Positions 11,535-13,180 of a stretch of DNA of 30,316 nucleotides are shown here, one piece after another (position 1 is the first letter of the stretch; every line of letters starts with the position of its first letter). The DNA is from a virus. The stretch lies in UHGV virus genome UHGV-0320916, one strand, 5' to 3'. The position numbers and the translations under genes are program-made. Under the pieces are notes generated by a model. It made no database searches, was not told the origin of the DNA, and saw only the letters and a list, made by a program, of their open reading frames with translations.

Positions 11535-11956
11535 AAAAGTTCTCCATTCAATCGTTTTAATGATTGAATATGTATTTTTTATATCTAACTTAATGAGTCA
11601 ATTACATATTGCTCCACTGTTTATATTTTGTTTAGTATTGAATGATTATCACAATGCGCTATCTGTTTTTGGTTTAATTATCTGTTATTGTTTTATGTTG
11701 CGGTTTTACTGTGTGGTTTTTTATGCTTTTGTGGTGTTTTTATCTATTTAAGCGCCATGCCTTTAGAGGCATATAAGCGAAAATAGCATGAGGTTTATCC
11801 TCAATTGCTATGTTTTTTGGTACAAAAAAGAGGGACAAAACTGAGACACATAAGGCCTCACAATGGCTTGCAAGGCTTTACATGTTTTGAGGTAGTGGGA
11901 CGTGTGAGCGCAGAGATGGCGCGGTAAGTTGTTGACTTAAAATGTCGTTCTAGGAA

Positions 11957-12001
11957 CTTCTAAGTCGTGGGCCGCAGGTTCGAATCCTGCAGGGCGCGCC
12001 A
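11957..12001 (+). other. Partial tRNA-Arg(UCU) 3' fragment, anticodon loop to CCA end, 45 nt: argU-type phage attachment core (DLP12 pauD-like)
   Basis: cttctaagtcgtgggccgcaggttcgaatcctgcagggcgcgcca matches the 3' 45 nt of argU as remembered; the 5' half of the tRNA is absent. Confidence 0.75.
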
Positions 12002-12016
12002 TTACAATTCAATCAG

Positions 12017-13180
12017 TTACGCCTTCTTTATATCCTCCATAATTCCAGAGTGGGACATATTTGGGACATTATCACCAAAAATGTCGTCTATTTTCCTCGC
12101 ATGCTCTGTCAAATGATTAGGCGCAAGGTGAGCATACCTACGAACCATTTCTATGGACTCCCATCCGCCCATTTCCTGAAGCACTGATAATGGGACGCCT
12201 GACTGAATCAGCCAGCTTGCCCAGGTGTGTCTGAGGTCATGGAAACGGAAATCTTCAATTCCTGCACGACGACAAGCTGATAGCCATGATGTCTTGCTGT
12301 CGATGCGCATCTTCCTGACCGCAGGCGTTGATGTTCCATCTGCTCGCTTAGCCGCCTTGGTATGTACAAACACCCATTTGTGATGCTTGCCTATTTGATC
12401 ACGCAACACTTTACAGGCGGTATCGTTCAGCGCCACACCAATGGCGCGGTTTGATTTGCTCTCTTCTGGATTCACCCAGGCAACTCGTCGCTGCATGTCG
12501 ATTTGTTGCCATTCCAGATTTATGATGTTCGACTTTCTCAGACCAGTTGCCAGCGCAAACTTGACGACAGATTTCAGTGGTTCGGGGCACTCATCAATAA
12601 GGCGTTTTGCTTCCTCCTTTTCCAGCCATCTGACTCGCTTGTTTCTGACCGCTGGTATCTTGATGACAGGCGCTTTTTCCAGCCACTTCCAGTCGCGTTC
12701 TGCAGCACGGAGAATGGCCTTTATCATGGCAAGATGCTTTGCCTTTGTCTGAGTTGATACTGGCTTTGGTTCATAAACAGGCAGTTCTTTACCTTTCCTG
12801 ATGGCGGCCTGAACTTTCTGTTTCCATATTTCTTTCGTCTTTCTGTTATGCATTCTGCTTACAGCAGAGTAAATCTTTGCCTCCGAGATATCTTTAAGCC
12901 TTATACCCTCAAAATGTTCAAGCCAGAACTCAATCCGGCTTTTATCTGAATCGAGAGATTTTTTATCAGCTTTTTCCTCAAGCCATCTTAGGCAGGCCTC
13001 TTCAAAAGTGACATCAGGTAAATCCCCTAGCTTTTCTACTCGCCAGAGTTCTGCTTTTCGCTTGTCGTGCAACTCCTGAGCTTGCCGCTTGTCCTTTGTG
13101 CCAAGAGATTCCTTAATTCGTTTCCCGCCCGGGAGCGAATACGAGGCATACCATATTTCATTTCTGCGGAAGAGTGACAT
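12017..13180 (-). CDS. intD: Tyrosine integrase, DLP12 IntD type
   Basis: 387 aa [27 protein letters not shown]...; C-terminal catalytic [39 protein letters not shown]; stop 16 bp from the tRNA fragment. Confidence 0.9.

Follow-up and report, generated by a model that had tools for sequence, protein, structure and literature searches.

The locus examined here raises two related questions: what kind of recombination site is formed where the 3' part of a tRNA gene stands between an outer-membrane protease gene and an integrase gene, and from what kind of DNA molecule was that site sampled? It lies within a stretch of 30,316 nucleotides of a virus genome (UHGV-0320916), referred to here as the window, and a first-pass annotation of the same sequence had described the junction as attP-like. 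Its central element is a 45-nt stretch (11957-12001, plus strand) in which all bases are identical to positions 33-77 of K-12 argU, the gene for the E. coli tRNA-Arg(UCU); it starts at the first base of the anticodon loop and ends at the CCA. This bears out the first-pass reading of an argU 3' fragment placed between ompT and int. Since the empty chromosomal site matches the window for two bases beyond the CCA, the core is to be taken as 47 bp (11957-12003, plus strand), that is, argU 33-77 and an extra TT, identical to attB in the four-way comparison described below. Matches to genomes with an empty site start at 11954 or 11957 and stop at 12003. An exact match of 47 nt to a tRNA gene cannot be chance, and strand exchange must fall inside this core. 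The CCA end at 12001 is separated by fifteen bases from the stop codon of int (12017-12019), and the spacing between argU and intD in K-12 is equal.

The tRNA gene itself is not complete in the window, as had also been noted previously. ARAGORN returned no tRNA gene in the whole window, and with a permissive threshold the Rfam tRNA model gave no more than 24.8 bits, under the gathering score of 29; a hidden intact tRNA in the P arm was considered and rejected on these grounds. At the gathering threshold the sole Rfam match in the whole window is the lambda cIII thermoregulator (RF01804, 88.5 bits; 16727-16785, minus strand). The sub-threshold tRNA match is an observation in its own right: it spans 11907-11990, with sequence of the P arm providing pseudo D and anticodon arms ahead of a genuine T arm. 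The P-arm block of this pseudo-tRNA is conserved in P22 and L, where an 81-nt 'tRNA-like fragment' is annotated; it may be left over from an earlier tRNA capture, or may simply be a protein-binding sequence.

The identity of the site was established by a four-way comparison of the window with an empty argU site (CFSAN061763; fimZ-argU-envY) and with the attL (fimZ-argU-intD) and the attR (ompT-core-envY) of the single prophage of E. coli LST200A. The 47-bp core, and nothing else, is common to all four sites. The window consists of the left flank of the LST200A attR, the core, and the right flank of the LST200A attL; the junction is therefore an attP, with the organization P-O-P'. Identity to the LST200A prophage is 100.000% at its right end (window positions 8986-12003), 99.978% at its left end (11957-30316) and 99.7-99.9% for 738-9486; the sole structural difference is an IS3 in the stf gene of LST200A that is absent from the window. 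Because each arm matches one end of a single prophage, both arms come from one phage type, and the window sequence is what Int/Xis excision of an LST200A-like prophage would be expected to produce.

Several independent properties of the locus agree with this assignment. The core equals the 3' part of its target tRNA gene, in the empty site as well as in K-12; lysogens have the two flanks apart from each other (LST200A attR at 100%, attL at 99.98%); both a full-length tyrosine integrase and an excisionase are encoded beside the core; and repeated putative arm-type Int sites are present in both arms. The predicted Int-dependent recombination with attB is supported only indirectly, by the existence of lysogens with a matching attL and attR. 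The attP-like call of the first-pass annotation was thus correct, the P arm, the 47-bp core and the P' arm being exactly delimited against attB, attL and attR, and it is near certain that the junction is an attP-type site of the DLP12/Nesevirus-type phage family. A site at one end of a single prophage beside host DNA, a simple attL or attR, has the presence of the core alone in its favour. A simple attL would need the 5' half of argU and fimZ on the left, neither of which is seen in the window, and a simple attR would need envY-side sequence on the right, which is absent from it. Phage DNA had previously been recognized on both sides, and this holds, with the ompT cargo on the left and a full int on the right; the directly adjacent host genes that had been named as evidence against an attP are not there, phage genes flanking the core on either side. 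The four-way comparison refutes the reading as a simple attL or attR, which retains a probability close to zero.

The arms of the site have the anatomy expected of a P22-type attachment site. On the left, the region upstream of ompT followed by the P arm (11535-11956) has 34% GC and is identical to the sequence left of the core in the LST200A attR and in the phage records discussed below; the portion that aligns with the P arm of P22-type phages (phage L/P22) covers about 11820-11956. Within it, GAGGGACAAAA followed by CTGAGACACA (11829-11849, plus strand) are the counterpart of the tandem pair GGGACAAAAACGGGACACA of P22/L, and these motifs are predicted to be bound by Int. A further putative arm-type site in the P arm, GTGGGACGTG, is found at 11894-11903 (plus strand), and the string GGGACGTGTGAGCGCAG is identical in phage L. 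On the right, putative arm-type sites of the P' arm (12049-12071, plus strand) take the form of two copies of TGGGACAT that lie 11 bp apart within the 3' end of the int coding region. TGGGACAT occurs twice in the window, both times in the P' arm (12051 and 12062), and GTGGGACATATTTGGGACA in this arm is identical in phage L. The common element of these motifs is a GGGAC repeat, found at 11832, 11897, 12052 and 12063 and conserved with phage L. Its extended form, TGGGAC, has nine copies in the window when both strands are counted, four of which, all with the same orientation, are no more than 300 bp from the core.

Two further types of element are discernible in the arms. A terminator-like hairpin at 11842-11876 was recovered by a terminator scan, with matches on the minus strand, and as a stable stem in the predicted fold of 11820-12020 (z = -4.0); a terminator is annotated at the homologous position of phage L. 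The hairpin may serve int transcripts as a sib/tI-like element. IHF-like sites are found in the P arm (AGTCAACAACTTA; 11925-11937, minus strand) and directly to the right of the core (ATTCAATCAGTTA; 12007-12019, plus strand), both as matches to a relaxed consensus only. Such relaxed matches number seven in the whole window, with three of the seven flanking the core within 200 bp; a search with the strict consensus WATCAANNNNTTR gave none near the core.

The recombinase genes belong to the same type as the site. The int gene (12017-13180, minus strand) codes for a tyrosine integrase of 387 aa (Pfam Phage_integrase, PF00589, 5.2e-47), which shares 74% amino acid identity over 378 aa with the P22-type Int of phage L; the alignment with the P22-type Int includes the VRRYAHL motif and one motif of 10 residues. 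At the nucleotide level, this int is 99.8% identical to intD of K-12. The excisionase gene xis (13036-13407, minus strand; Pfam HTH_17) is intact and overlaps the start of int, an arrangement also seen in P22/L, and its product is 78% identical to the P22-type Xis over all 116 aa. Its K-12 homologue, xisD, is truncated.

While the gene content, the homologies and the relations between the sites are direct results of the comparisons, the mechanism proposed here is derived from the anatomy of the site and the established lambda/P22 model. The P22-type Int encoded beside the site would bind both the GGGAC repeats of the arms and the core, bridging the two, and would probably be assisted by the host bending protein IHF. 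It would then recombine the phage core with its identical 47-bp counterpart at the 3' end of chromosomal argU, with a crossover that, judging from the alignment with the annotated P22 site, probably falls around 11963-11985. As a result, the phage-borne 3' part of the tRNA gene would complete argU at attL, beside int, and the original 3' part of argU would move to attR, behind ompT. Int together with Xis would catalyse the reverse reaction, regenerating exactly the sequence of the window. Binding by Int, IHF and Xis and the position of the crossover are thus predictions from sequence.

The order of genes in the window is J, lom, stf, methyltransferase, hydrolase, ompT, attP, int, xis, recombination genes, immunity, replication, Q, porin and lysis. 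The ompT gene (10581-11534, minus strand), coding for an omptin outer-membrane protease (Pfam Omptin, 2.8e-130), is the last cargo gene of the b-region-like arm. It is annotated at the equivalent position in 2G7b, E28 and LST200A, and together with its upstream region is 98% identical at the nucleotide level to K-12. The first-pass annotation had given the left arm as tfa remnant, methyltransferase, tfa remnant, ompT and tRNA fragment; this order is correct, but it misses an alpha/beta hydrolase of 494 aa and a DinI remnant that also lie between the methyltransferase and ompT. It had further described J-lom-stf tail genes that the K-12 DLP12 lacks: lom, stf and most of J are indeed present in the window, and the tail genes of K-12 DLP12 are deleted, but J is incomplete, being cut at position 738.

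Certain other genes of the window deserve mention. The alpha/beta hydrolase (8910-10394, minus strand) has a TAP-like C-terminal domain and is matched by the PADLOC model C3a206 at 6.8e-56; it is cargo situated between the tfa remnants and ompT, where K-12 DLP12 has appY. Just downstream of the repressor gene, at the position of lambda rexA/rexB, are two overlapping genes (19118-19894 and 19882-20424, both minus strand) with weak matches to the PADLOC candidate defence system PDC-M24 (5.4e-07 for B, 3.8e-04 for A); one of them is annotated as DUF1828 in LST200A. An OmpC/NmpC-like porin gene of 380 aa (26730-27872, minus strand) lies between Q and the holin, as it does in DLP12 and 2G7b. At its right end (30060-30316) the window breaks off inside an IS3-family element located just after bor/iss, some 0.6 kb short of where cos would be expected. 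The chromosomal LST200A prophage shares this IS3 insertion in identical form and has two further IS elements that are lacking in the window or lie beyond it. Sequenced phages with the bor/IS3 junction were sought as a sign that an IS3-bearing phage is viable, and no clear case was seen among virion genomes.

The left end of the window has a different origin. Positions 1-737, with 64.5% GC, encode, on the minus strand, the N-terminal part of MurC, and 150-737 match the murC region of the gut anaerobe Oscillibacter sp. MSJ-31 at 98.6% nucleotide and 100% amino acid identity. The first 150 nt are a 99% inverted copy of 336-485, i.e. a 150-nt inverted duplication. The murC segment is joined to the middle of J at 737/738, and this join is blunt, with zero shared bases and no shared k-mer. 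E. coli genomes gave no match to the Oscillibacter segment, and exact-pattern scans of viral and metagenome contigs gave none to the murC/J join. A real cross-phylum insertion of Oscillibacter DNA was considered and rejected as very unlikely in view of a blunt join in mid-gene beside a 150-nt inverted duplication; the first 737 nt are almost certainly a chimera of amplification, library or assembly. This Oscillibacter murC chimera points to a metagenome-type assembly, from a gut metagenome or virome. With a chimeric left end, the surroundings of the contig cannot be used for settling the context of the junction, and some doubt is left as to its long-range continuity. The blunt nature of the murC/J join indicates a chimeric template or read rather than a collapse of the assembly graph, and is thus no specific reason to expect a false path at the core.

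As for the molecule that was sampled, the first-pass annotation had proposed either the attP of a circular or excised genome or the internal junction between tandem prophages at argU. Both contexts do occur in nature, the one in four phages and the other in 102 of the 5,426 complete E. coli chromosomes, and the evidence favours the former. The whole 30-kb window follows the cos-to-cos order, and circularisation need not be invoked, because attP lies mid-genome in a lambda-type cos-to-cos virion genome. We consider it likely that the junction is the attP of a single lambda-like temperate phage belonging to the DLP12/Nesevirus type, present as unintegrated DNA in vegetative (cos-to-cos) order; that the sampled DNA was such an unintegrated phage molecule is what we infer. 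The same junction would be formed within two tandem prophages at argU, if Int mediated a second integration or a phage dimer were integrated. Neither cos nor an intact argU nor any host flank falls inside the window, so that the sequence as such does not separate a tandem array from the unintegrated phage. A tandem arrangement draws on real chromosomes: the 501-bp junction is present in those 102 complete genomes (about 2%), the IS3 insertion in the right arm is the same as in the chromosomal LST200A prophage, and E. coli E28 (NZ_CM143889.1, about 3.694-3.784 Mb) has two full and identical prophage copies in tandem, from argU to envY, with this very junction between them. Nevertheless, the junction is followed on its right by a full int, as in the window, in just one of these 5,426 genomes, namely E28, versus every virion-order phage genome of the group. 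Moreover, the arms correspond, at 99.7-100% identity, to the two ends of one single prophage, and nothing in the window requires a second copy: no gene is duplicated across the junction, the J-ompT arm and the int-lysis arm together forming the order of one genome. A tandem origin is hence unlikely. The same applies to its more specific form, in which the chromosome of a genuine polylysogen would have been sampled, with prophages in tandem at argU and the second of them complete and excision-competent (E28 being a parallel), a state that we regard as improbable.

The junction could also have arisen during assembly, as a path that leads from the attR side to the attL side of a single prophage through the core. 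The core is an exact 47-bp repeat at both ends of the prophage, the sequence of both arms is essentially that of a single integrated prophage, and the contig has at least one false join (the Oscillibacter murC to mid-J fusion with its 150-nt inverted duplication) and ends in a repeat, the IS3. Against this, current assemblers use k above 47, the blunt murC/J join says little about behaviour at a 47-bp repeat, and the junction is real in isolated phages and is also present in an independent metagenome contig, OLEA01004031.1. We consider such an artefact quite unlikely. Under each of the three readings, be it unintegrated phage, tandem prophages or assembly path, the site is the same attP sequence.

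The chromosomal occurrences of the junction have a recurrent structure. A truncated int comes next to it in AST216 and 2014C-3338, then a tfa remnant, a methyltransferase and a second ompT; in the inspected tandem examples the second ompT stands before ybcH, and a degraded int adjoins the junction in most of the chromosomal examples. Such an attP-type scar, carried by about 2% of complete E. coli genomes and seen for instance at loci L004 (13458-16410) and L005 (13458-16403), comprises a full prophage with ompT at its end and, behind it, the core, int in truncated form, a tfa remnant, a methyltransferase and the second ompT. The degraded int remnants of L004 and L005 have one copy of TGGGACAT, and the 11-bp difference also shifts the reading frame. 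In the inspected chromosomes, the combination of the junction with a decayed int looks like the result of a new phage stacked on a decayed older one, and the attP-type scars at argU indicate repeated stacking of phages with duplication of ompT. The two E28 copies share identical protein accessions and the same frameshifts in J and in the tail assembly gene; this pair is either a true dilysogen or a duplicated assembly.

The junction shows no departure from known biology, and the locus is near-identical in 2G7b and ev243; it is an ordinary attP, that of a familiar kind of lambda-like E. coli phage which uses argU. It is a clean textbook case of Campbell-type integration at a tRNA gene, which by itself matters little. 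Its use lies in what it permits: the site shows ompT travelling as phage cargo beside attP, and the exact sequences of attP, attL, attR and attB allow excision to be followed at the level of reads in gut samples. The assembly chimera in the window is relevant to any user of this contig. According to the survey, attP-type scars and a second ompT persist at argU in about 2% of complete E. coli genomes; were the window itself to derive from a true tandem polylysogen, it would be a snapshot of an ongoing re-integration that stacks phages, and extra copies of ompT, at argU in gut E. coli.

Among the closest known systems is the cryptic prophage DLP12 of K-12, whose 47-bp argU-derived att (attR) has been described already (PMC6379469), and in the annotation of K-12 the DLP12 feature begins at argU position 33. 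The window shares with it the site of integration, the 47-bp core, an int at 99.8% nucleotide identity, the ompT end at 98%, and the layout of tfa remnant, methyltransferase, tfa remnant and ompT. DLP12, being integrated, has an attL and an attR rather than an attP. It is also defective, with a truncated xisD, deleted head and tail genes, and inserted IS3 and IS5 elements, whereas the window has an intact xis, lom, stf, most of J and a full early region. As it is free of the defects that define DLP12, the phage of the window is not DLP12 itself; it is a complete-looking relative.

The nearest sequenced phages are those in which the 3-kb ompT-core-int stretch is contiguous: six records that represent four phages, at 98.7-99.9% identity, namely 2G7b and ev243 (each with a GenBank and a RefSeq record; both of the genus Nesevirus), Turner and Kati. 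In 2G7b and ev243 the junction lies mid-genome, at 99.9% identity. The record of 2G7b (47,142 bp) opens with the small terminase gene and places ompT-int at 26.7-29.3 kb; it proceeds in the order terminase, head, tail, J, lom, stf, methyltransferase, hydrolase, ompT, int, exo/bet/gam, N, repressor, O/P, Q, porin, lysis and bor, of which the window shares the part from J to bor. These four phages differ from the window as mosaics, 69-72% of positions 1-25000 aligning to them at 97-98%, and are without its IS3 after bor. With regard to membership of Nesevirus, 69% of positions 1-25000 align to 2G7b at 98.2%, a figure that compares 30 kb of a mosaic genome. The PhiR-series records are deposited in prophage order, broken exactly at the site of the junction. 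A literature search on 2G7b, ev243 and Nesevirus found nothing relevant. A 73-nt attP pattern had one match among metagenome contigs, the unrelated 1.8-kb contig OLEA01004031.1, and an exact scan of viral contigs with an 81-nt attP pattern gave no match; no record of the stf protein was found.

Tandem polylysogens of the lambda type (attL-prophage-attP-prophage-attR), of which E28 is an example, have an internal junction of exactly the same sequence; they differ in that the window has neither a second att site nor a second copy of any phage gene. A further comparison is offered by the attP-int-xis module of the Salmonella phages P22, L and ST64T, in which a cargo operon, a terminator-like hairpin, a tRNA-derived core and a 387-aa int with xis overlapping its start are found as in the window. 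The P and P' arms of the P22/L attP align with those of the window at 82% column identity, with the GGGAC repeats conserved. The core of P22/L is taken from a Thr tRNA gene and that of the window from the Arg-UCU gene, so that their chromosomal targets differ; and the cargo beside the site is gtrABC in P22, L and ST64T as against ompT in the window.
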